This document shows, piece after piece, positions 903-48,863 of a stretch of DNA of 64,000 nt (positions within the stretch are counted from its first letter, which is position 1; the number at the start of each line of letters is the position of its first letter). Below the pieces are notes generated by a model. The model was given only the letters and a program-made list of their open reading frames with translations. It was not told where the DNA came from and did no database searches. Source of the stretch: Acinetobacter phage nACB2; the sequence record OQ032512.1, one strand, 5' to 3'. The position numbers and the translations under genes are program-made.

Positions 903-1229
903 TCAAATAATATTTTCTCGAATGAACAATCTTGCGAAATTATGTTTCTGGAGATGTTTGGTTAAATCTGTTAGGAATGTAAATTTTATTAGACTTTCCT
1001 CTGTCTTGAAACCATTAGCGCACCATATCTTGAGTTCATACGCATCACCCTTTCTTAGAGATATGATGTATTGTTTCTCGCTCTTAGTGTAACTAACCAT
1101 TACAAAGTTACCATGCACTTCAGCTTGGCATTCTTCAATGTTCTCCACTTCAAATGAGTCTGTCATCAATTTGCTTATTTTGACCTGTACCGTATTTTCA
1201 AGATCAATATTCATAAAACTTCTACCCAT
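903..1229 (-). CDS. hypothetical protein
   Basis: 108 aa ORF whose ends overlap its neighbours by 4-20 nt, which is phage-typical packing. Confidence 0.4.
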   Translation of the reverse strand: MGRSFMNIDLENTVQVKISKLMTDSFEVENIEECQAEVHGNFVMVSYTKSEKQYIISLRKGDAYELKIWCANGFKTEESLIKFTFLTDLTKHLQKHNFARLFIRENII

Positions 1230-1510
1230 TCGTTATTGAATTTCTTTTGTATTTTACAAATGTATTTCGTATCTAACATAGATGGCGTTGAATCATAAAG
1301 AAATAATGTGTTTGAAGTACAACGATATGCTTGATTATCCACATAAAAAAAATGGTATCTGGATGAGTTTAACGGTTTGTGGATATCCCCTTCTAAAATC
1401 AGAACATCATTTTTGTATACTTCAAACTTCATATTGTCTTGTTTAGTGCACCCTAGTAGAGAACAAACCAAAACAACTAAAAATAGATATTTCATTAAAG
1501 TTCTCCGCAT
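1211..1510 (-). CDS. putative lipoprotein
   Basis: N-terminus MKYLFLVVLVCSLLGCTKQ carries a signal peptide and an LLGC lipobox. Confidence 0.5.
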   Translation of the reverse strand: MRRTLMKYLFLVVLVCSLLGCTKQDNMKFEVYKNDVLILEGDIHKPLNSSRYHFFYVDNQAYRCTSNTLFLYDSTPSMLDTKYICKIQKKFNNEWVEVL

Positions 1511-1968
1511 GACGCTTCAATTATTCTATCGATCACTTGACGACGGCGCGAATTAAACGGCGTAATTGTTTTTTGAAATGACTCCAAGATTACTTTTACA
1601 TCCTTATTGTTGAGGCTCTCTATGAAATCTTTGTCCAAAAACATTTCGCATCTTGCCCAAGTTCCTTCTTCACCTTCAACGTAATACTTTGGATTTGAAA
1701 GATTGCGGGAAAGTAATCTGGCTTCACCTTCCGCCAATTCTAAAACAATGTACCCATCCTGAATGAATGTAATTATCTCATGAGAGGTGTAGAACTCGTT
1801 GTATGTTACGTCACACTGAAAAGCTACGCATGCTTGTTTTCCGTTTAGAACGTCTCTCAATTCCATAGAATCGTCTGTGTTAAGACGAGCTATGCCAATT
1901 TTACAATTCAATGAATCATCTAGTGTCATTAAGACGCCATCAAGGCTTGTTCTAGGTATTCCGTACAT
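1495..1968 (-). CDS. hypothetical protein
   Basis: 157 aa ORF; no motif recognised. Confidence 0.4.
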   Translation of the reverse strand: MYGIPRTSLDGVLMTLDDSLNCKIGIARLNTDDSMELRDVLNGKQACVAFQCDVTYNEFYTSHEIITFIQDGYIVLELAEGEARLLSRNLSNPKYYVEGEEGTWARCEMFLDKDFIESLNNKDVKVILESFQKTITPFNSRRRQVIDRIIEASCGEL

Positions 1969-9135: not shown

Positions 9136-10615
9136 CTAGAATAGGGAGTCAAGGCTGAACGATGTCGGAGCCTTTGCCTCCCAATTTATTGCTGTTAAAA
9201 AGTTAGTCAAAGGCGAAATGAAGCACTTATTGAATGCTGTTTCTTTATCAATAAACTGATCAAGTTTGAACTCCTTCGGCAATTGATCATCATATGATAT
9301 TACTTCCATACCGAAAGGCGAACCCTTCCGTAATGGTAACACAAAATATTTATTCCCGCTACGAAGTGGCATGATATGTGTCACTTCCAACCGTTTCAAT
9401 AGATTGTTATGGTTCACTGCGCCTTTAACGTGATAAGGTGTACCCTTTACGTAATTACCGCTACTATCTAGATAGTCTTCAATGTTGTTGATATTTTGAG
9501 CAGCGCCGTACTCATTAATATCTCGATCCTTTTTGAAGTCTGTTTCACAAGCGTCAACAAACTGATGCATCTCAGTCATTCGATCATTCAACGCAAATTC
9601 ATAACACTTCTTCATCCAATCTCGACAGAACATTGGGTAGTTTGATTTACGCGCTTCTAAGCCAACAATCTTCAGCTTAGGAGACGCGAATCGAACGCCT
9701 TCATTATCTGTTAATAGCATAGCGTATCTTTTCTTAGTAGTAAAGATGGCAACTGTAGAAATCGCTTCTCGCTTAAAGAAAAGAGCATTGATTGGGCAGT
9801 TATATGAAGCAGCTAGTTCTTCAGCCCATTGGATGAATAGTGGTTCAAGAACGTCTTTAGCGAGTTCATCAAGTTTGTCAGTTTTAGCTTCAACAGACAA
9901 CTTATCCCAACCTTCGGCTTTCACCACTTCTTTAAATTCAACGTACACAGAGTCTGTATCACCGTAGAAACAGTGATCACCTGATAGACCGTATTTGTTA
10001 TTGATCCATTCGTTCAAGCGGAACATGATATGACGCGTTGAACATTGTCCAGCTGTAGTAATTGCTTCTGCAATACGAATATCAAAGTGGTCAGCAAAGT
10101 TTTCATTCGCAATCGCGCCGTAACCAGCGTTGGCAGCAATTTTATGCGAGTGTTGGTTTGAATCGCCGTTCTGAATGATTGTTTCCCATTCATCCTTCTG
10201 CTTATAGAACCCTGCGTCCTTCTCTAGACATTCATCAAGATATTTTTTCTTGATAGATTCTAAAGAGCGTTCATCATTCTTCATTTGACGTTTAATCGCA
10301 GAACGCGTGTCGTACAAGTCTTTGAATACGCGACGTAACAGAGATGGACGCTCAATCTTGAACATGGCTAAGTTTGGAGCCATACAAACTTTAAGGCGCT
10401 TGAGTACTTGGAAATCATATGGGCGTTCAAAATATACATCCCAAATGCCTTGACGAGCACGGAAGCGTTCAGCGTACAAACGTGTATATTTGTCTTGTTG
10501 GTCTTCAGGTAAAGATTCCAATTCTTTTGCTAGTGCATCTAGAATCTGTTCTGTAATAGCCCAAGGAATCAAGGTCTCAACGCCCATATTGAACTGTTGC
10601 GCCATGTGTGGATAT
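9136..10615 (-). CDS. 43: DNA polymerase (family B, gp43-like), 3' exon or C-terminal segment (palm, fingers, thumb)
   Basis: Contains motif B-like KIAANAGYGA and motif C FYGDTDSVYV. Its N-terminal YPHMAQQFNMGVETL aligns to YPSIIRQVNISPETI of T4/RB69 motif A. The track ORF start at 10785 reads through intron sequence. Confidence 0.85.
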
Positions 10616-11788
10616 CCTTTATGTTCAGATGAGTTCGTGATTCTCATCCCGGAATTGTATCCAGCTTGTATTCGCATACAAGAGCAGACTATATCATCAC
10701 CCACGTTATACGTTTGGTACGCTGTTGTAACTAGCGCAGATGAGCTATACTCACCGTGTCTCCCGTTTCCAATTAAGCCATACATTTAGGCACCACACTT
10801 GGCTGTACTATGTCTTGCGACTGTCTAGTCGTTGAACCTTTCAGAACTTCTTTGATCTTTAGTGTATACAGTTCTACATCTAAACCTTTTAATTTCAATG
10901 GCTTGACGTAGTTAGATGCTAGTGTTCCGTTTTGGTTGAAGATTGTTTTGCCTTTCGCTTGAGCCTTCAGATAGTAAGCAAACAATTGTTCGTCAGACCA
11001 TCCAATGATTTCAAGTTTCTTGCGTTCAAGACTTTCTTTGAATTTTTGCTTTCCATCTTCTGATTGCATCGGGTTAGATTGTTCAAACCCTTTACCATCT
11101 AGATGATGTTTCAATTCGCCAGAAATATATCTTGGATCATTCTTTTCAGTCATAAATGTATTACCGTCTGAGTCTTTAACAACAACTCGTCCAGTCATGT
11201 ATTCTTGACTACGTTTAGTGATGCTTTTAGCAGTTTCTTCATCAGCCCCAAAGAACTTTTTACCGTTCATATCGGGTCTAGAAACACCGCGTTTAGTCTC
11301 ACTAATCTTCAACTTCACATCTTCGCGCTTAGATGGATTGTTCTCACCTGAGTTCATTACGCTAGCATTCAATCTAGCTTCAACGGTATACTCAGCGCCA
11401 TCTCTAGTTGTTGTCATTAAGTGATACGCAAATCCCATACCTCGAGTTTTTGCGCCTAACATCAATAATCTATGCGCTTCGACGTGTTCTAAAATAGATA
11501 AATCTATCAGATTCCACTTAGCATTTCTGTATTCATAAAAATCGCAGACTGGAAGAATATGATGACACTCTGTTACGCCATAACCTTTAGCAGACAAAAT
11601 GAATTCCACGTACTGTTCTAGTACAGCGTGGTCACCATTCTTGTAAGTCTGTTTCAAAGCATCTAGCATTTGTAAAGCGTTCATATAATTCACCATTCTG
11701 ACTTGGCTGCTGATTGTCTCAGTGAGAGTTCCCAGCAATTAAAGAGATTTTCATTGTATTATTACTAATACAAGCCCCTTATCAGTTA
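10616..11788 (-). mobile_element. putative group I self-splicing intron (1173 nt) carrying an HNH homing endonuclease ORF, inserted inside motif A of gene 43
   Basis: The 5' exon ends in U (..gccct) and can pair with GGGGC 10 nt into the intron, forming a P1 with a U-G pair at the splice site. The intron ends in G (..cataaagg). An R-like GGUUCAACGACUAGA (about 10821-10838) and an S-like GAUAUAGUCUG (about 10685-10698) can form P7. A P9-like hairpin CUUGUAU-GCGA-AUACAAG carries a GNRA loop. Joining the exons restores DANALYPHMAQQ in frame. Confidence 0.55.
10773..11696 (-). CDS. HNH homing endonuclease (intron-encoded)
   Basis: The HNH motif is ECHHILPVCDFYEYRNAKWNLIDLSILEHVEAH, and NUMOD-like GENNPSKRED repeats are present. 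The first in-frame ATG is at 11696; the track uses a TTG at 11738. Confidence 0.75.
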   Translation of the reverse strand: MVNYMNALQMLDALKQTYKNGDHAVLEQYVEFILSAKGYGVTECHHILPVCDFYEYRNAKWNLIDLSILEHVEAHRLLMLGAKTRGMGFAYHLMTTTRDGAEYTVEARLNASVMNSGENNPSKREDVKLKISETKRGVSRPDMNGKKFFGADEETAKSITKRSQEYMTGRVVVKDSDGNTFMTEKNDPRYISGELKHHLDGKGFEQSNPMQSEDGKQKFKESLERKKLEIIGWSDEQLFAYYLKAQAKGKTIFNQNGTLASNYVKPLKLKGLDVELYTLKIKEVLKGSTTRQSQDIVQPSVVPKCMA

Positions 11789-13053
11789 AGGGCATTAGCA
11801 TCCACTGAAACCACGTCTTCGTACCGTCCTGGCTTCAAATCTTTAACGTATCCGCCAGCGTAATCAGGCTTAGAATTCACGCGCGCACGAATTTCAGAAT
11901 ATTCTTTGCCGCGTGCTCCATAGCCGTACATCAAGTATTGCCAAGGAAGTACTGTCGCATTTGTGTCGTCTGGATTACAATGGAATAAGAAAGCCAGCGT
12001 ATATGCCAGTTGTAACATCTTAGTCTTTTCGGCAATGCGCTTAACTAAGTTCACGTCATGAATGTTGTATGAGATGTAGTTCTGGAAGTCTTTGTAATAG
12101 AATTCAGTCAGGTTTTTATAATCGCTATGGTCAACCTTTTCTTCACCCAAGAAGTGTTTTGCGGCTGTGTTTAGCTTTTTGTTATCCAATTCTACAAAGG
12201 CGTGTTTGTCAACGATGTCTTTCAAATCGAGGTTGCTGATACCTGCAATGTTGAAAGTCACTTCTTCGCCATAAGGTCCTTGGAAGGTACGCTTGCGCAC
12301 GTAATCTAGTGGAGAAATGCGTTTGAGCTGATCTCGTCCAAGAAGGGCGTCAATACGGTTACAGAAATATGCAATATCAAACGTGTCGCTGTTCCACCCT
12401 GAAATATAGTTGTATTCGGCATCTGCGAAATGATCAACAAAATCTGCAAGTAAGTCTAGCTCAGAGTCATAACCAACATATTCAATTTGTTCTGGCGTGA
12501 TATGTTTAGCTACTTCAGGCGGTAACTTTTCTACATCGAAAGTACCAATATATTCGCCCTTGAACGTCTCAAGACCAAATACAAAGAATTTATTTGTAAA
12601 TGTGTCATAAACCGTGATGGCTGTGACTTCGTATTGAGCTAGAGCAGGCTCAGGGAATGGGCCACTAAAGATAACGCCTTTTGCGTCTTTATAACCAGAC
12701 TCAACCTCAATATCCAGAAGCGCGCCGCGGATATGTTTCATATCAAACGTAATCTGCTTTTCAGGATAACGTTCAGCCACATATTGAGCTAGAGGGTTGT
12801 CAATGCCGTAGATTTTGTAGTTAGGAACGTTCTTCATTTCATCTAACCATTGATCCATGGCATAGATGTTATCAAAAGTCACAGCCTGTAAGGGTAGACC
12901 ACCTAGAGAACGGTGTTCAGATTCTTGATCTTGAGATGGTACAAATAACTTGGGCTTGAAATGAATTTCTGAAGTACCACGTACGCCATTTTCTACGTAG
13001 CGCTCAATGATTTTTTCTTTATGCTTGGTTAGTGAAGTGTAAAAACGAGACAT
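11789..13053 (-). CDS. 43: DNA polymerase (gp43-like), 5' exon or N-terminal segment (N-terminal and 3'-5' exonuclease domains)
   Basis: N-terminus FYTSLTKHKEKIIERYVENG aligns to T4 FYISIETVGNNIVERYIDENG. Exo I motif LLDIEVES is present. It ends ..SVDANAL, followed in the genome by N and a stop codon. Confidence 0.85.
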
Positions 13054-25892: not shown

Positions 25893-27377
25893 TCAAATAT
25901 CAACCTTAATGGTTTTGATTGTTTGTCCCTCTTCCCTGTATATATCTAAACGCTCGGCAGCCCATTCCATTGTTCTATTTCTACGCCCGTCAAACTTCAT
26001 TTCATCTATCAAGTCGTAAATGAACGCAATGTCTTTAGAGTCGTGAATACGCAACATACGCCCTATTGATTGCTGAATTCTGATATTTGACTTACTTGGG
26101 AATGCAAATACTAAATTGTGCAGCTTCTTGATAGAGATACCTGTAGACGTTGTTCCATATGACGCTAAGAGAATGACGTCATCATGCGTTTCCATGTAGC
26201 GCTTGATTTCTTCTCTTTCTTCAACTGAAATTTCGCCGTGAATAACAAAGGGCTTCAAACCTGCTTTGATCATCTCTTCTTTAACAACTTCTAGGTGTGT
26301 CTCAATATTGTTAAACAAAAACAATGAGTTACCTTTGAGTTTGCGCCCTAGATTTACTAGAATTTTATTTCTTGGTTCATATCCACATATGATTTTAGTT
26401 TCCTTCTCCAAAGTACAGTCATTACGCCATTTGCGTCTTTGTTCTGTTGGATAAGACATTACGATCATATTAACAACTGTTTTAGTGGCTAAACCTCTGT
26501 CTTGCAGTTGTTTTGTAGTTACTAGGCGCTTAGAATCTCCAAAAATCTTACAAACTCTGATCTTATGATTTGGGTCATTTCTTCTGAGTGTACCTGTTAA
26601 GCCTACGCGCTGCCAACAGTTGATACAAGATGAGCTGATATAATCTAGGCTTTCTGAGCTGAATGTATGAGCTTCATCCCCCATTAAGAAATTGAACGGT
26701 TGGAAAAATTCTCTGTCTTGATTCTTTAGAGTCTGCCACGTACAAATTACAATTCTTTTTCTTGTATATGGACTTACGCCGTCACCAGCTACGTGAACAA
26801 ACGCATCTGTATCCCAGCCGTTGAGTTGAGAATAGTCCTTGAAGTCTTTATATAACTGTTGAGTCAACTGAAGGGTTGGGACAACAATAAGAATCTTAGC
26901 CTCATCAGCCATCATATCGAGCCAAAATCTGGATTTCATGTATTGCATCAAAGATTTACCAGCTGATGTAGCTGCCAGAGCAAGGTATCTCGTATACTTC
27001 ACGCTGTAGTAAAGCGCTTCAACTTGGTAGTCGTAAGGCTTGATGGGATTGCCGCCAGATGAAACATTGAGATTATCAACCCATTCCTGAATGTCTTCTC
27101 GGCTGATATCTCTGACTAGATTCTTCAATAACGGTTCGATGTCTACTTTGTCTTCGTAATCTTTACAAAGTTTCAGCATCATGGAAAGCAAGCCTGAAGG
27201 GAATGTACCATTCTTTTTATTGAACATACGTACAGTTCCATCCCACTTTGTCCAAGCATTGCGCTCGAAAGTGGGGTCTTGATATCTCAAAGTATCATAA
27301 GCTGCTTGCCATAGGCTATCATTGTCCGTTTCCAAGAACAAGGTACTAGCGTTCACTACACCAACAAAAGCAGCCAT
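25893..27377 (-). CDS. uvsW: SF2 DNA helicase (UvsW-like)
   Basis: Walker A is LALAATSAGKS, the DEAH box is FLMGDEAH, and helicase motif VI QSIGRMLR is C-terminal. At 494 aa it is similar in size to T4 UvsW. Confidence 0.75.
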   Translation of the reverse strand: MAAFVGVVNASTLFLETDNDSLWQAAYDTLRYQDPTFERNAWTKWDGTVRMFNKKNGTFPSGLLSMMLKLCKDYEDKVDIEPLLKNLVRDISREDIQEWVDNLNVSSGGNPIKPYDYQVEALYYSVKYTRYLALAATSAGKSLMQYMKSRFWLDMMADEAKILIVVPTLQLTQQLYKDFKDYSQLNGWDTDAFVHVAGDGVSPYTRKRIVICTWQTLKNQDREFFQPFNFLMGDEAHTFSSESLDYISSSCINCWQRVGLTGTLRRNDPNHKIRVCKIFGDSKRLVTTKQLQDRGLATKTVVNMIVMSYPTEQRRKWRNDCTLEKETKIICGYEPRNKILVNLGRKLKGNSLFLFNNIETHLEVVKEEMIKAGLKPFVIHGEISVEEREEIKRYMETHDDVILLASYGTTSTGISIKKLHNLVFAFPSKSNIRIQQSIGRMLRIHDSKDIAFIYDLIDEMKFDGRRNRTMEWAAERLDIYREEGQTIKTIKVDI

Positions 27378-27413
27378 AAGAATCTTCCATAGATATCAAT
27401 TATGTACTTACCA

Positions 27414-27719
27414 TCATAATTCCCAATATAATATAGCTTTCTTAATCACGTTCCCGTGACATTGTTTCGGGCTACAGAAGCATTGTAGGTTCAAATCGCC
27501 TTCCGAGCTTATACCTTTAAGGCGTTTCAAATCATTTATGATTTTTCTATTTCCTTGGTTCACTTGATTTTTAAGCCATTCTTCGTATTGATCAATGACT
27601 CTTTTACGACTAACTTCGCCATTTAGCGGAAATGGATTCCCCAGAATAGTTGGACGTCCAATATAAACTGTCGTTCCAGAATACACTTGGGTATCACTTT
27701 TGTTTATTATGCGTATCAT
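27414..27719 (-). CDS. DUF4326-like small protein (CxC...CHG motif)
   Basis: C-terminus LQCFCSPKQCHGNVIKKAI matches the two conserved motifs (CHC-like and HG) of DUF4326. Confidence 0.45.
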   Translation of the reverse strand: MIRIINKSDTQVYSGTTVYIGRPTILGNPFPLNGEVSRKRVIDQYEEWLKNQVNQGNRKIINDLKRLKGISSEGDLNLQCFCSPKQCHGNVIKKAILYWEL

Positions 27720-28039
27720 AATTCAGACTCATCTAAAGTTGAAAGAATCATCTGCTGACTTTGTTTCTGTCCTTTACGTCCATTTGTAATAGCGTTCTGC
27801 TTAGCTACGGAATGTCTAAATGCGCGTCGGCGGTCTTTTTCAGCCTGTTTTGCCGCTCGCTTTTCAGCCTGTCGAGTAGTGCGTCCATCTGGAGACTGAG
27901 ATAAGAAATTTGGTTCAAATCCAGTTTCCGGAATACTAATTTTTCTAGCTGGAGACGCTTCAACAGCTTGCATTTGACCAGCTACAGCCATAAGCATACC
28001 AATATTTGAAAGTCTTTTACCAATCATGACATAATCCAC
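27716..28039 (-). CDS. hypothetical protein
   Basis: 107 aa ORF with a hydrophobic N-terminus. Confidence 0.35.
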   Translation of the reverse strand: MDYVMIGKRLSNIGMLMAVAGQMQAVEASPARKISIPETGFEPNFLSQSPDGRTTRQAEKRAAKQAEKDRRRAFRHSVAKQNAITNGRKGQKQSQQMILSTLDESEL

Positions 28040-28533
28040 ATAATTTAATACGAGTGTTCATTAAAATAATACCAAGATTATTAGCGCCGCAACCTGTTTT
28101 ATGGTCTACGCCCCAATAATTATCTTTCCACCAGTTACCTTCTATCAATGTCTTATCGTTAGTTGAAATCAACTTTTCTAACAAGTTTGGATTGTTTTCA
28201 AATTTCTTCAAAACTATAGATTGCATATACTTCAATCTGTTAGGTATGAATGAACTATCAAGTCGATGGTCTTTACCCTTTAGATCAAATTGTTCTTTAG
28301 CGAAGACTTTAGATTTTTTAGGAGACATTTTAGATACAAGACGTTTTGTCTCCATATCCAAGAACTTACAAGACTGATAAGCAGCTTCTGAACTAAAAAA
28401 ATTCAATATGAGCAATGATTATAGGCTTGTCCAATACCTGCATATTACTCAGATATTTGTTATCAGCATTGTCGTAGAAATTTCTGATTTCAGAATGTTC
28501 TTCTTTATACCAATCTTGAGATGTACTTTTCAT
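28017..28533 (-). pseudogene. NADAR/YbiA-family (DUF1768) gene interrupted by a +1 frameshift at a U7 run followed by UAG (about 28393-28401)
   Basis: An upstream 46-codon ORF (MKSTSQDWYKEEHSEIRNFYDNADNKYLSNMQVLDKPIIIAHIEFF*, ATG at 28533 with a GGAG Shine-Dalgarno) aligns to the YbiA N-terminus (NFY...FSNF...HYFQ). The downstream ORF (28017-28415) continues SSEAAYQSCKFLD...NYWGVDHKTGCGANNLGIILMNTR, matching the YbiA signature G.N.LG..LM..R. Deleting one T from the run fuses the two ORFs. Confidence 0.6.
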
Positions 28534-29759
28534 AAAGTCTCCAGTTATAACTCAACTGCGGTAACCAATTTGAAACCTACTCTAGACGATTGGCCAGACC
28601 ACTACCATCAATCTCAAACTGTTTTCACAATATTATGGTTTGCTCACCTTGTTCTGACTAGCGCCTGAAAGGTTATAACCTCTGTCTTCATCAGACATTA
28701 ACTAGCTAGTTGAACCACCTCACTTTTTCTGTCACGCCCCTAATGAACATAACCCCAGTAATCTCGGAATGAACCTTACAAACATCAATCTATCACCGCA
28801 GATAAATTATAAAACCGAATGACTCAACTCTATATAAATCAAATAAAAAGGAGTCAAAAGACTCCTAGCGTTTAAGATAGAATTGTGTGGCGGCGTGGTA
28901 GCTATCAACCTCTAGCTTTTCTTTACCTTTAACGCAAATAACGTTACCACTATGATTTTCCAAAACCATTTCATCGCTTGTTCTAAAGAATGAACCTCTT
29001 TCATATGTTTATCTCATGATCAGATTATTTATAAATTCCATTTCAACGTCTGTAATAAACAGCATCTAAATGGTCTATTTTTATACAGCTGTACTACCGT
29101 GTGAGACCTATAATTTAGTAATGGCTCTTGTCTAATATATACAAGGTTTCACCCCTTTCTCACATTCTTCCCATAAATCACAAGGTGATAATTCAGGAAA
29201 TTAAGAATGACACTTGACCAAGTGTATCTTCAAATGAATGAAGACTGATACTAGGAACCCAGATTTCAATTAAGGAAATCTCAACGCCTGAATGTTCAGC
29301 TGACGTTGCTCACACTGTATTACTACAGAATCAAGATAAAATCTCAACCTTATCATCATATAATGTTTAACGTGATCTGATGATCCAATACAATTATAGG
29401 GGTCAATCTGAACTTCAATTGTAAAGGCTTCCAAACACGGTAGTCTATCAGATTGATATTAGACAAATGGGCTTAATGAAGGAGAAAAATCTCAAGATGC
29501 CATTTGAATCAATTCAAATTTTTGAATTTTACCATTCTGACCACTTTCTCTCAAGTTTAGACCTTGAGGAAAACTAGACTGAACTTTTACGTCCAAGAAT
29601 CCTTGTCATGTGTATAGGTGAAAACATAAACAAGGCAACAAGCAAGGCTGATTATAAATCCTTTGTTTTTAAAAGTAAAGTATTTTTATTATTTGATTTT
29701 TATCTATATGATGGTCTTTACAGTAAAATAGCTGTATCATTCAAACAAGGAGCAATGAT

Positions 29760-30032
29760 ATGCCTATTATATTAGGATTGTTAATTGTCATAGGTGTGCT
29801 ATCGTACCTGTACTACGTTGAGCGTAAACGTAACCAATCTTACATTTCTCAAGATGAATCTGAGTTGCGTGGTTACGTTTATGCAACTGAACAACTTGAT
29901 GAACATTTCACAATTATGAAATTTGAAGAATTGAAATGTATGTCTGAAGTTTCTGTAGCTGGATATTCAAGATTCCACGAAGGTATCCGTAGAAAGCTAA
30001 AAGAAGTAAACGTTGAACATTTAGAGACATAA
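29760..30032 (+). CDS. small membrane protein
   Basis: N-terminal transmembrane segment MPIILGLLIVIGVLSYLYYV. Confidence 0.45.
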   Translation: MPIILGLLIVIGVLSYLYYVERKRNQSYISQDESELRGYVYATEQLDEHFTIMKFEELKCMSEVSVAGYSRFHEGIRRKLKEVNVEHLET

Positions 30033-30075
30033 TCCTTTATTTCAAACCTCAAATACATTAAAATAGGAGATTAGG

Positions 30076-30486
30076 GTGGATACTATTGTAATTTTTACAG
30101 CTATAATGCTGATAATGATGTCACCTATGGGAATATTATGGGTAGTGGCTTCTGACCATAAAAGAATAGTTGACGCTGAAAGTTTTAGACAACTATTACT
30201 TCGTGAAGACTTTGAAGATACAAAACATCTATTGTTTGGGCGACTAGGGTGGGCTGAAGCTTTAGAAGTTGATGAAGAAAATATGCTTTTCAAATACAAG
30301 TTTGAAGCTGACGGCGTTACTCTTTTTTCAAATCAAGATAAAGATGGATATGCTCTTTTAACAATAGATGCAGATAATCTTAGTTGGCAATCTACAAAGC
30401 AAACGAAAAGATCCATTTTACAATTTCACACTTATTTGCATTTTCGCAATTTCATTCAACAATTAAAGGCAAAAGATGAACATTAA
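30076..30486 (+). CDS. hypothetical protein with an N-terminal transmembrane helix
   Basis: 136 aa ORF. Confidence 0.4.
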   Translation: MDTIVIFTAIMLIMMSPMGILWVVASDHKRIVDAESFRQLLLREDFEDTKHLLFGRLGWAEALEVDEENMLFKYKFEADGVTLFSNQDKDGYALLTIDADNLSWQSTKQTKRSILQFHTYLHFRNFIQQLKAKDEH

Positions 30487-31623: not shown

Positions 31624-31953
31624 ATGATGATATCTTTAATTTCTGAATCTAAAACACCTCGTCTTGGAACTGCGACTTCAAAACGTCTTGATGAGATGTC
31701 TCAACTGAAGTCATTCATTACCAAAACACCAACTAATGGTTATTCGTATGAAATAAAAAGTAGCTCTCAAGCCTACGAGGGCGGATTTTTCTCAGACGAA
31801 CTTTTGAAAATAGCTGAGACGGTTCCTTCAAATTTAGATCGAATTATAGCCCAGAAAAGTGCTATACAAGCTCGTGAATATCACAACAACCGTCATCTAG
31901 ATGGTCTTAGCGACTATGAAAGACATTTCTGGAAGAAATGTCCAGAATGGTAG
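31624..31953 (+). CDS. hypothetical protein
   Basis: 109 aa ORF. Confidence 0.4.
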   Translation: MMISLISESKTPRLGTATSKRLDEMSQLKSFITKTPTNGYSYEIKSSSQAYEGGFFSDELLKIAETVPSNLDRIIAQKSAIQAREYHNNRHLDGLSDYERHFWKKCPEW

Positions 31954-32094
31954 ACTATAGGACGAAGGGGCGATCTAATCCATCAATAAATATAGAACGC
32001 GATAGATTTCATCTAGATCGAGCATTGGATAATATGTATAATATGTCATATCCAATGAAGCGCGTGTTGTTAGATTTCTACAATCGTTAAAAAA

Positions 32095-32123: not shown

Positions 32124-33272
32124 TTAACGCAAAGAACCAACATCTTCAGGGTTGAAACGAGCACCGAAGTCTCTAGCATGGGCTACGGCGTTGTCCAATA
32201 ATTCAAAATCATCATCGTCCACTAATTCGCCCATCCAATTGGTAATTTGGAGGTTGTAATAGCATTTACCTTCTTCATCATGGAGTTTGAAAATACTCGC
32301 TTCGCAATCCCCATATTGCCCGCAGTTCTTGGCTGTAATGAAGGCTGCGTCTTCATATGATTCGTCAAGACGGTATTGCGCTTCATTCAACTTTTTGTAT
32401 ACGGCGTAGTCTTTGTCTTTAACGAAGTCAATGATTTCAGAGAATGACTTATCAATCTTGAACGCCTTGACACTTCCGTTTACTTGGAAAGCAGCCTTCC
32501 AACGGTGATGCCCATCCACAATTACTTTATCATTGGAGATAACAATTGGCTTTTTATCCCAACTTTTTTCAGCTACAATACTGTTTACCTTTTCCATATT
32601 GAATTCTGACTGAGATGGAACCAGTTGATCAGAAAGGTATTCACCTTCATCTACATTGATACCATACTTTTTCAGATCAACGATAAACTTGTCGAGTTCA
32701 AGTTGAGGTAGGTTCTGGCGTTTATGGAAATTTTCATTTAAACCAATAGCGTAGAAATCGCCTACGTGTTTATTGATCCATTCAATAGGCTTGTCAGGGT
32801 TGTCGCCATTAAATGACTCTTTTTCTGAACCGTATTCAAGAGTGAATGAGTATAGACTAGAGTAAGTCATTTTAACTTCACCAGAGTCTGGATCTTCTGG
32901 AACAAAGAATACAGTAGTGTAAGCGTCTTCAGGTTTTGATTGCCAACCTGCATCGTAGAATGCTTTACGCAAACGAGTAGCGCACGCTGATGTTTCTTCG
33001 CCCCAGTCTGAACGTTCGTTCAGAGGTACTTCTTGACCTTCATTCAATTGTTTTTCAGAGAAGTCGTAGACCAAATCGCAACCTTCCAAAGTATAACCTT
33101 CAGTTAGACCAATTTTTTCTGCAATTTTATCCAAAGCAATCTTATTAGGGTGCGAAAATTTAAATGAGGAATCAGTTGACTCAGTAACAAGAGCAGCGCC
33201 CATATAGAGCATTGCAACTTTATTCAAACCCAGACTTGCTACTCGCTCATTAAAGGCGCTAATTTTGTCCAT
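32124..33272 (-). CDS. protein with a C-terminal ParB/Srx-like nuclease domain
   Basis: KVIVDGHHRWKAAFQ carries the DGHHR motif of the ParB N-terminal nuclease fold. The roughly 250 aa N-terminal domain is unknown. Confidence 0.45.
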   Translation of the reverse strand: MDKISAFNERVASLGLNKVAMLYMGAALVTESTDSSFKFSHPNKIALDKIAEKIGLTEGYTLEGCDLVYDFSEKQLNEGQEVPLNERSDWGEETSACATRLRKAFYDAGWQSKPEDAYTTVFFVPEDPDSGEVKMTYSSLYSFTLEYGSEKESFNGDNPDKPIEWINKHVGDFYAIGLNENFHKRQNLPQLELDKFIVDLKKYGINVDEGEYLSDQLVPSQSEFNMEKVNSIVAEKSWDKKPIVISNDKVIVDGHHRWKAAFQVNGSVKAFKIDKSFSEIIDFVKDKDYAVYKKLNEAQYRLDESYEDAAFITAKNCGQYGDCEASIFKLHDEEGKCYYNLQITNWMGELVDDDDFELLDNAVAHARDFGARFNPEDVGSLR

Positions 33273-33359
33273 TTTGATACACTCGTATTTGATTTTAGAA
33301 AATAAAGCTATTATGAGTTATACTAAGGGTGAATTATACAAACAGAGATTCAATAACTC

Positions 33360-33764
33360 ATGTCTTTTACAAAACTCTTTCCTCATGTTGCATCAGGTAT
33401 CGTAGCTTGGGCAAACGAAAACAACATTGTTTGTCATATTAGTTGCGACACAAACCGCGTAGAAGGTCTACCAGCTACTATCACTAAGAAATATCCCGAT
33501 GCAATCACTTTATCTATTGGTGATGAAGCTACTAAAGGTTCTCTGGACGTAAATCAAGAATCAATGATTTTCAATTGTCGATTCAATGGAACTGAGACGC
33601 GTGTAGTTGCACCTCTAGAATGTATTCAATTTTTGAGCGTTCCTGATGCTGGAATGATTGTCGGTAATGAAGTTTATACTGATGTCAATCAGAAAAAGCC
33701 TTCAGATGAAATTACCTTCTCTGAACCTGTTAAACCTAAATCTAAATTGCGCATTGTGGAGTAA
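33360..33764 (+). CDS. hypothetical protein
   Basis: 134 aa ORF. Confidence 0.4.
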   Translation: MSFTKLFPHVASGIVAWANENNIVCHISCDTNRVEGLPATITKKYPDAITLSIGDEATKGSLDVNQESMIFNCRFNGTETRVVAPLECIQFLSVPDAGMIVGNEVYTDVNQKKPSDEITFSEPVKPKSKLRIVE

Positions 33765-48516: not shown

Positions 48517-48593
48517 GCGCCTGTAGCTCAGTTGGATAGAGCATCCGCCTTCTAAGCGGATGGTCACAGGTTCGAGTCCTGTTAGGCGCGCCA
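48517..48593 (+). tRNA. tRNA-Arg (anticodon TCT), with encoded CCA
   Basis: Manual fold: acceptor gcgcctg/taggcgc, D-arm gctc-agttggata-gagc, anticodon stem tccgc/gcgga with loop cttcTaa, T-arm acagg-ttcgagt-cctgt. Confidence 0.8.
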
Positions 48594-48708
48594 CTTTCAA
48601 ACTCCAGAATGCGAGGACAACAGTATCACCCAGAACACGGCGGTGGTTGCGTTATTAGCATGGACAACGCGGCAGTCGGTAAAAGCCGTGGGCGTAGCAA
48701 TACGCTCT
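48594..48708 (+). ncRNA. 115 nt spacer between tRNAs; possible small stable RNA, not a tRNA
   Basis: No T-loop or cloverleaf is found. By analogy to the small RNAs in the T4 tRNA cluster it may encode a processed RNA. Speculative. Confidence 0.2.
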
Positions 48709-48784
48709 AGCCTAGTAGCTCAGTTGGTAGAGCAGCGGATTGTTAATCCGTTGGTCACAGGTTCGAACCCTGTCTAGGCAGCCA
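48709..48784 (+). tRNA. tRNA-Asn (anticodon GTT), with encoded CCA; A1:A72 mismatch
   Basis: Manual fold: D-arm gctc-agttggta-gagc, anticodon stem gcgga/tccgt with loop ttGTTaa, T-arm acagg-ttcgaac-cctgt, 3' ctaggca-g-cca. Confidence 0.75.
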
Positions 48785-48786
48785 TT

Positions 48787-48863
48787 GGGACTTTAGCTCA
48801 GAAGGTCAGAGCATCCGACTCATAATCGGGCGGTCACTGGTTCGAAACCAGTAAGTCCCACCA
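48787..48863 (+). tRNA. tRNA-Met/Ile2 (anticodon CAT), with encoded CCA
   Basis: Manual fold: acceptor gggactt/aagtccc, anticodon stem tccga/tcggg with loop ctCATaa, T-arm actgg-ttcgaaa-ccagt. Not initiator-like, because there are no 3 G:C pairs in the anticodon stem. Confidence 0.75.

Follow-up and report, generated by a model that had tools for sequence, protein, structure and literature searches.

How does the NADAR gene of Acinetobacter phage nACB2 come to be spread over two reading frames, and is it recoded, switched, inactivated or merely misread? We examined this question in a stretch of 64,000 nucleotides of the phage (OQ032512.1), which as a whole is referred to as the window. The first of the two ORFs runs on the minus strand (28533..28393) and consists of 46 codons and a TAG, with the tail ...IAHIEFF. 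Its ATG is at 28533-28531, and a Shine-Dalgarno GGAG (28539..28542, minus strand) lies 5 bases ahead. Both elements can be read directly in the sequence, as the first-pass annotation had described for this upstream ORF, and the Shine-Dalgarno region, TGGAGACTTTATG, was identical in all 10 sequences of a DNA alignment (A2). The second ORF (minus strand, 28415..28017) is in the +1 frame and ends with the TAA at 28017. The frames meet, one T apart, at GAA (28404-28402) TTT TTT TAG (28395-28393) T, which is the junction reported earlier as gaa-uuu-uuu-UAG-u. The site of the one-T insertion is a T7 run on the minus strand (A7 on the plus strand), read as TTT TTT TAG in the zero frame. This run occupies 28395..28401; the earlier placement at 28394-28401 was one base too long. 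When one T is taken out, or when the second UUU is assumed to undergo a +1 shift, a repaired NADAR of 171 aa is obtained that reads ...HIEFFSSEAAYQ... over the junction. In GenBank the N-terminal piece is nACB2_079 (WAW11852.1, 46 aa) and the downstream piece is nACB2_078 (112 aa), each labelled hypothetical protein. The latter starts only at M60 (28355-28353), so it is without E49 and K56, the putative catalytic-type residues. Six ORFs of the window are identical to nACB2 proteins, namely the two NADAR pieces and those for DUF4326, the helicase, a topoisomerase subunit and nACB2_086. That nACB2_078 and nACB2_079 are halves of one NADAR gene is mostly of value for annotation.

The identity of the gene was assessed by profile searches and alignments. 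The repaired 171-aa protein scored 66.8 bits against Pfam NADAR (PF08719; gathering cutoff 35.1 bits) over profile positions 2-162 of 163, and it matched phrog_1017 at 1e-29. The expectation of a complete domain of about 172 aa was thus borne out for the domain and corrected to 171 aa for the length. The downstream part alone scored 58.2 bits and covered only profile positions 40-162, in agreement with the view that ORF 28017-28415 is a NADAR without its N-terminal third; for this reason, we took the upstream ORF as the missing N-terminus. The upstream fragment (28393..28533, minus strand) matched residues 1-46 of intact homologues and added profile positions 2-39. The +1-frame continuation (28017..28394, minus strand) supplied residues 47-171 and the TAA, as judged from Pfam, the homologue alignments and the alignment with E. 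coli YbiA (PDB 2B3W). The earlier reading had depended on the downstream ORF being a NADAR and on the upstream ORF aligning to NADAR N-termini, and both proved to be the case. The complete domain is therefore not found in a single frame here, profile positions 2-39 and 40-162 being separated by the TAG, and the observation of a split gene is far beyond chance.

We also compared the repaired protein with characterized NADARs. It aligned with E. coli YbiA (PDB 2B3W) over residues 15-164 (E=1.2e-5), SSEAAYQSCKF pairing with TSEHYFQAQKF and LIE with LVE. The putative catalytic-type residues, E49 (28388-28386) and K56 (28367-28365), are seven residues apart and were invariant in an alignment of three phages. 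The catalytic Glu-x6-Lys pair of NADARs is E88/K95 in the E. coli C7 NADAR and E43/K50 in that of P. nicotianae (PMC11543638), and by its spacing the E49/K56 pair probably corresponds to E88/K95 of C7. In addition, the residue of the last beta-strand is Glu in the YbiA subfamily, Asp in the DarT1-linked NADARs and His in gp30.3 (PMC11125620). E131, in TLIEGNWW, pairs with the last-strand Glu of YbiA (KLVEH). The T4 gp30.3 family was not matched, as the score against Pfam Phage_30_3 (PF08010) stayed at 18.7 bits, below the cutoff of 36; likewise, the last-strand residue is Glu instead of His. On these sequence features, the gene is best classed as an ordinary YbiA-type NADAR. It shares with YbiA the same domain at full length (profile positions 2-162 of 163) as a bare protein of ~170 aa with no extensions, the SE..(Y/F)Q..KF motif with its Glu-x6-Lys, the last-strand Glu and the G.N.LG..LM..R tail. 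However, the pairwise similarity is weak (28.8 bits), and YbiA is cellular, whereas the nACB2 NADAR is phage-encoded and split by a frameshift, with no full-length product encoded.

The age of the two-frame arrangement was judged from relatives. Megablast and blastn searches of the locus and the surrounding 24 kb against the phage collection returned only a weak match to Acinetobacter phage SH-Ab 15599. IMG/VR, scanned with a back-translated query, yielded a single marginal locus (L003) that was left out, and an exact-pattern scan for the junction, with T6 or T7 allowed, found none in JGI metagenome contigs or IMG/VR. All informative relatives were obtained through gene look-ups in Logan, ENA and JGI, in which a 90%-identity protein cluster led to nine NADAR-bearing contigs from eight sequencing runs. 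All nine contigs carry one uninterrupted NADAR ORF of 170 or 171 aa (88-99% amino-acid identity), and the nACB2 window has exactly one extra T at the junction column (alignment A2, 10 sequences). The nearest relatives, L005 and L006 (98-99% identical), have GAA TTT TTT AGT, that is, T6, at this position; the other two NADAR-bearing clades have TTC TTT AGT and TTT TTC AGT. The nACB2 NADAR differs from L005, its nearest intact allele, by 3 substitutions and the T, and the intact homologue P0006 differs at 2 of 171 residues and reads ...IAHIEFFSSEAAYQ... over the junction. Between clades, dN/dS was 0.05-0.07 in the single NADAR frame; the intact frame is under purifying selection in the relatives. 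In the more distant Acinetobacter phages SH-Ab 15599, at 46% identity, and Ab1-TPeters, at 38% identity in the three-phage alignment, the NADAR is a single ORF as well, and the junction is ungapped (IEFFSSEAAYQ in repaired nACB2, IPYHSTEAAYQ in SH-Ab 15599 and IEYNSSENAYQ in Ab1-TPeters). Since all these relatives have a single ORF and the nearest are almost identical to nACB2, the two-frame arrangement is unique to nACB2 and very young.

The first-pass annotation had suggested prfB-type programmed +1 frameshifting, and we considered whether the T7 allele yields full-length NADAR by programmed recoding, either through such a shift or through transcriptional slippage on U7. A UUU codon with a zero-frame UAG behind it is prone to shifting, as in prfB-type 'shifty stop' sites. 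The nACB2 site has a slippery P-site codon, a +1 codon that is also UUU and then the zero-frame stop (UUU UUU UAG U). As in prfB (RF2), the sequence downstream of the in-frame stop is in the +1 frame, and this downstream NADAR frame is undamaged. However, the prfB site and its Shine-Dalgarno-like stimulator are conserved across bacteria and autoregulatory, whereas the nACB2 site is without stimulator, conservation or regulatory logic. The two-frame arrangement occurs in none of the nine close relatives and neither of the two distant phages, and in relatives synonymous TTC codons break up the run. Within the 25 nt that precede the site (CCTATAATCATTGCTCATATTGAA) there is no GGAGG-like element, nor any other G-rich element resembling a Shine-Dalgarno sequence. 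With regard to transcription, RNA polymerase slippage is efficient at the 8-9 bp length of the RNA:DNA hybrid, and slippage runs are typically of 9 or more. The U7 run is shorter than this, and a conserved long A/T run of the kind expected for transcriptional slippage was lacking, the run being of 7 bases and present in nACB2 alone. The dispensability of the NADAR, described below, also argues against programmed recoding. Programmed frameshifting is not supported, and we regard programmed recoding of either kind as very improbable. The nACB2 NADAR thus brings no new mechanism and no added case of programmed frameshifting.

We favor another account, in which the one-T insertion is a real, very recent inactivating mutation of the NADAR gene, and we assign to it a probability of about 0.65. 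That the locus might be a fresh pseudogene or a homopolymer error had been raised from the start, and the unique lesion and the intact relatives favor this pair of explanations. As in a young pseudogene, the intact orthologues are constrained, the lesion is unique and there is little other decay. The real mutation is preferred because of the high Illumina coverage, the clean rest of the genome and the restriction of frame breaks to small accessory genes. Replication slippage in a T6 tract would have converted GAA TTT TTT AGT into GAA TTT TTT TAG T. Translation from the native NADAR start would then stop after 46 codons, and Glu49 and Lys56, with the rest of the fold, would lie in the +1 frame without a good start, so that the enzyme would essentially not be made. 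Trace read-through may occur, by unprogrammed ribosomal +1 slippage on UUU-UAG or by RNA polymerase slippage on U7, and some full-length NADAR could arise from the UUU-UAG site with its U7 in this way, although there is no sign that such slippage is put to use. The event would be very recent and would have struck an accessory gene that this lineage can lose; T7 was likely fixed in the isolate by natural drift or by plaque purification on a non-selecting host. We infer that the phage itself, and not just the consensus, has the extra T, and that nACB2 has probably lost NADAR function.

The main competing explanation is that the phage truly has T6, with its 171-aa NADAR intact, and that the extra T is confined to the deposited sequence. 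What separates the two frames is a change of homopolymer length by one base, and the T7 at 28401..28395 is the only A/T run of at least 7 inside an ORF in the 64 kb. Furthermore, T6 is found in the nearest relatives, which are 99% identical in other respects, and neither NADAR half has decayed further. The thymine of nACB2 may also play a part: the phage is predicted to carry hypermodified thymine (PMC13458397), which is conceivable as a contributor to a consensus error at a T-run. Against this explanation stands the quality of the data. In a consensus, Illumina MiSeq sequencing at high coverage rarely miscalls a homopolymer of 6 or 7 bases. For nACB2, MiSeq reads (Illumina, 2x300) were assembled de novo with Geneious to a coverage of 487x (PMC10057805), so a miscalled 6/7-mer would be a rare event. 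We also looked for comparable lesions elsewhere. None of the 39 A6/T6 runs in the 64 kb is linked to a frame break, and large genes are free of breaks: the terminase, the 1603-aa tail protein and the topoisomerases are essentially ungapped relative to the relatives. Gaps against the window numbered zero over up to 11.8 kb (contigs L018-L021) and one over 11.9 kb (L016). We therefore hold an error confined to the deposited sequence to be possible but rather unlikely, and the nACB2 sequence merits a check at this one homopolymer. The only other A/T homopolymer of at least 7 in the 64 kb is an A8 run at 1345..1352, located between ORFs 903..1229 and 1495..1968.

Over the ~55 kb of the window that was compared with relatives, only two frame breaks were found, both in small accessory genes. 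Besides the NADAR, a break affects a plus-strand ORF of 109 aa (31624..31953), whose continuation to ~32090 lies in another frame. At ~31926-31928 the window has CA-TTTCTG (T3), and the relatives have CAT TTT CTT (T4). The equivalent of 31624..32090 is one ORF of 156-158 aa, of unknown function, in 5 relatives. With the allele of the window, these 5 share just 54-60% identity, which leaves no near-identical comparator. This second one-T break, 3.5 kb from the NADAR, could be due to relaxed selection or to imperfect consensus calling. A second one-T indel in another small gene nearby speaks for an artefact; a change from T4 to T3, however, is atypical for a homopolymer error, and breaks in small accessory genes, together with a NADAR that is deleted in nature, form a pattern of relaxed selection. 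Two further candidates for frameshifts were examined and rejected. The SspB-like gene (33250..33764, plus strand) is not split; its N-terminal length varies among relatives. It encodes 134 aa in the window, 132 in L004, L010 and L013 and 148 in L007 and L008, and the extension of L007 and L008, which lies in another frame in the window, looks like start-site variation. The DNA polymerase gene was likewise set aside, as its parts are separated by a 1.17-kb insertion and are in the same frame.

The genes around the NADAR form a leftward string in the order NADAR, 103-aa ORF, DUF4326 and helicase. The ATG of the 103-aa ORF (27716..28027, minus strand) overlaps the end of the NADAR (ATGATTGGTAA), and this overlap with the NADAR stop, as read from the sequence, would allow translational coupling. 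The ORF is 103-105 aa in all relatives and had no match in Pfam or PHROG searches. The next gene (27414..27719, minus strand; GenBank nACB2_076) encodes an intact protein of 101 aa, which had been assigned to DUF4326 on the basis of a CxC...CHG motif. The assignment is sound: the protein contains CFC...CHG, scored 66.7 bits against PF14216 (cutoff 25) over profile positions 9-82 of 82 and matched phrog_464 at 4.6e-28. An exact look-up of this protein found no contig on record. The string continues with an SF2 helicase gene (25893..27377, minus strand), for which Pfam ResIII, DEAD and Helicase_C families were found on the orthologues, and the NADAR...DUF4326-helicase order is common to nACB2 and SH-Ab 15599. 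On the other side of the NADAR, ~1.5 kb (28534..30075) with no ORF of at least 100 aa separates the leftward string from the rightward genes that begin at 30076; in relatives, a conserved 46-aa ORF lies within the equivalent of this interval. It is presumably a divergent regulatory region. A promoter and terminator scan of 27300-30200 gave 15 hits, no better than the 11.6 in shuffled sequence.

A natural deletion of the NADAR was found in three samples with identical breakpoints (window 28506|28050). In L013 (a 135.7-kb metagenome contig), L022 (JGI) and L023 (Logan), window positions 28505..28051 are missing, and the flanks are 97-98% identical to the nACB2 window. A GTAT microhomology is present at the deletion (L013:9643-9702). 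The reading frame is preserved across the deletion, and what remains is a mini-ORF of 19 codons, MKSTSQNWYIKLCGLCHDW, with the ribosome-binding site of the NADAR, its start codon and its stop, which still overlaps the following gene's ATG. The mini-ORF may thereby preserve translational coupling to the 103-aa ORF. Because the gene has been cleanly deleted in three independent metagenome samples, the NADAR is dispensable in this phage lineage. This group of Acinetobacter phages carries a YbiA-type NADAR near DUF4326. Three states of the gene were encountered: an intact form under strong constraint, a clean deletion and a frameshifted form. Such a pattern is expected for an anti-defence accessory gene with host-dependent value.

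The coexistence of ON (T6), OFF (T7) and deleted alleles in closely related genomes, and the slippage-prone T6 tract that the closest relatives carry at the site, raised the question of a contingency switch. In this scheme, the T6/T7 tract would toggle the anti-defence gene within the population, and the consensus would have caught the OFF state. Such a switch would act through phase variation in the population or through low-level +1 or transcriptional slippage that gives a trickle of NADAR. If it were true, the gene would stay silent on hosts that make it useless or a burden and could be regained quickly on DarT1-bearing ones. However, there is only one example of T7. In addition, 2 of the 3 NADAR-bearing clades break the tract with TTC, which indicates that selection does not maintain it, and T6 runs are nothing unusual in an AT-rich genome such as this one (39 A6/T6 runs in 64 kb). 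We consider it highly doubtful that a lytic phage uses slippage in the tract to switch an anti-defence gene on and off or to set its dosage, and a population toggle with its OFF state captured in the consensus has, if anything, slightly less to recommend it.

Returning to the reading of a recent inactivating mutation, we asked what the intact gene might do. AdfN (T4 gp30.3) and the unrelated enzymes NADAR-Bas32 and NADAR-Bas60 clear DNA guanines of ADP-ribose and rescue plating against DarTG1, and every phage NADAR tested by Johannesman, Carlson and LeRoux in 2024 countered DarTG1 (PMC11257639). By analogy, the intact alleles of the nACB2 group would be expected to remove guanine ADP-ribose and to counter DarTG1. 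The nACB2 gene resembles those of AdfN, Bas32 and Bas60 in being an orphan NADAR in a lytic phage. It differs in that AdfN is of the gp30.3 type with His in the last strand, whereas the nACB2 NADAR has Glu, its copy is disrupted and the host genus is Acinetobacter. DUF4326 belongs to the rhodanese-phosphatase superfamily as a clade in DNA viruses that is often fused to NADAR, Macro or SLOG, and its predicted targets are the ribose-linked phosphates of ADP-ribose derivatives (Iyer et al. 2022, PMC9503650). The 101-aa neighbor is a clear member of this clade, and its linkage to NADAR is also seen in SH-Ab 15599; in contrast to the frequent fusions, it stands alone in nACB2, two genes from the NADAR. 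The gene is present in all relatives, including those in which the NADAR is deleted, and this retention indicates that DUF4326 does not depend on the NADAR. The proposal of an ADP-ribosylation-reversal module is consequently plausible from the published work (PMC9503650, PMC11257639), but the two genes are not obligately coupled, as DUF4326 persists without the NADAR. The NADAR half of the module is most likely off in nACB2. Neither the anti-DarT1 function of NADARs in phages nor the association of NADAR with DUF4326 is new, both having been published already.

Two other features of the window were recorded. The family-B DNA polymerase gene (9136..13053), a single ORF of 914 aa in relatives L014 and L015, contains an insertion of 1173 bp (10615..11787, minus strand) after ...SVDANAL|YPHMAQQ.... 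The insertion holds an HNH homing endonuclease ORF (10773..11738; phrog_12434, 1.4e-62) and two Rfam matches to group I introns that fall short of the gathering score of 50 (34.9 and 28.5 bits). A mobile group I intron at the active-site motif of the polymerase is the probable interpretation. At the gathering threshold, Rfam found nothing in the window beyond three tRNAs. These form a cluster at 48517..48860 (plus strand), scored 67-71 bits against the Rfam tRNA model and agree with the three tRNAs reported for nACB2.
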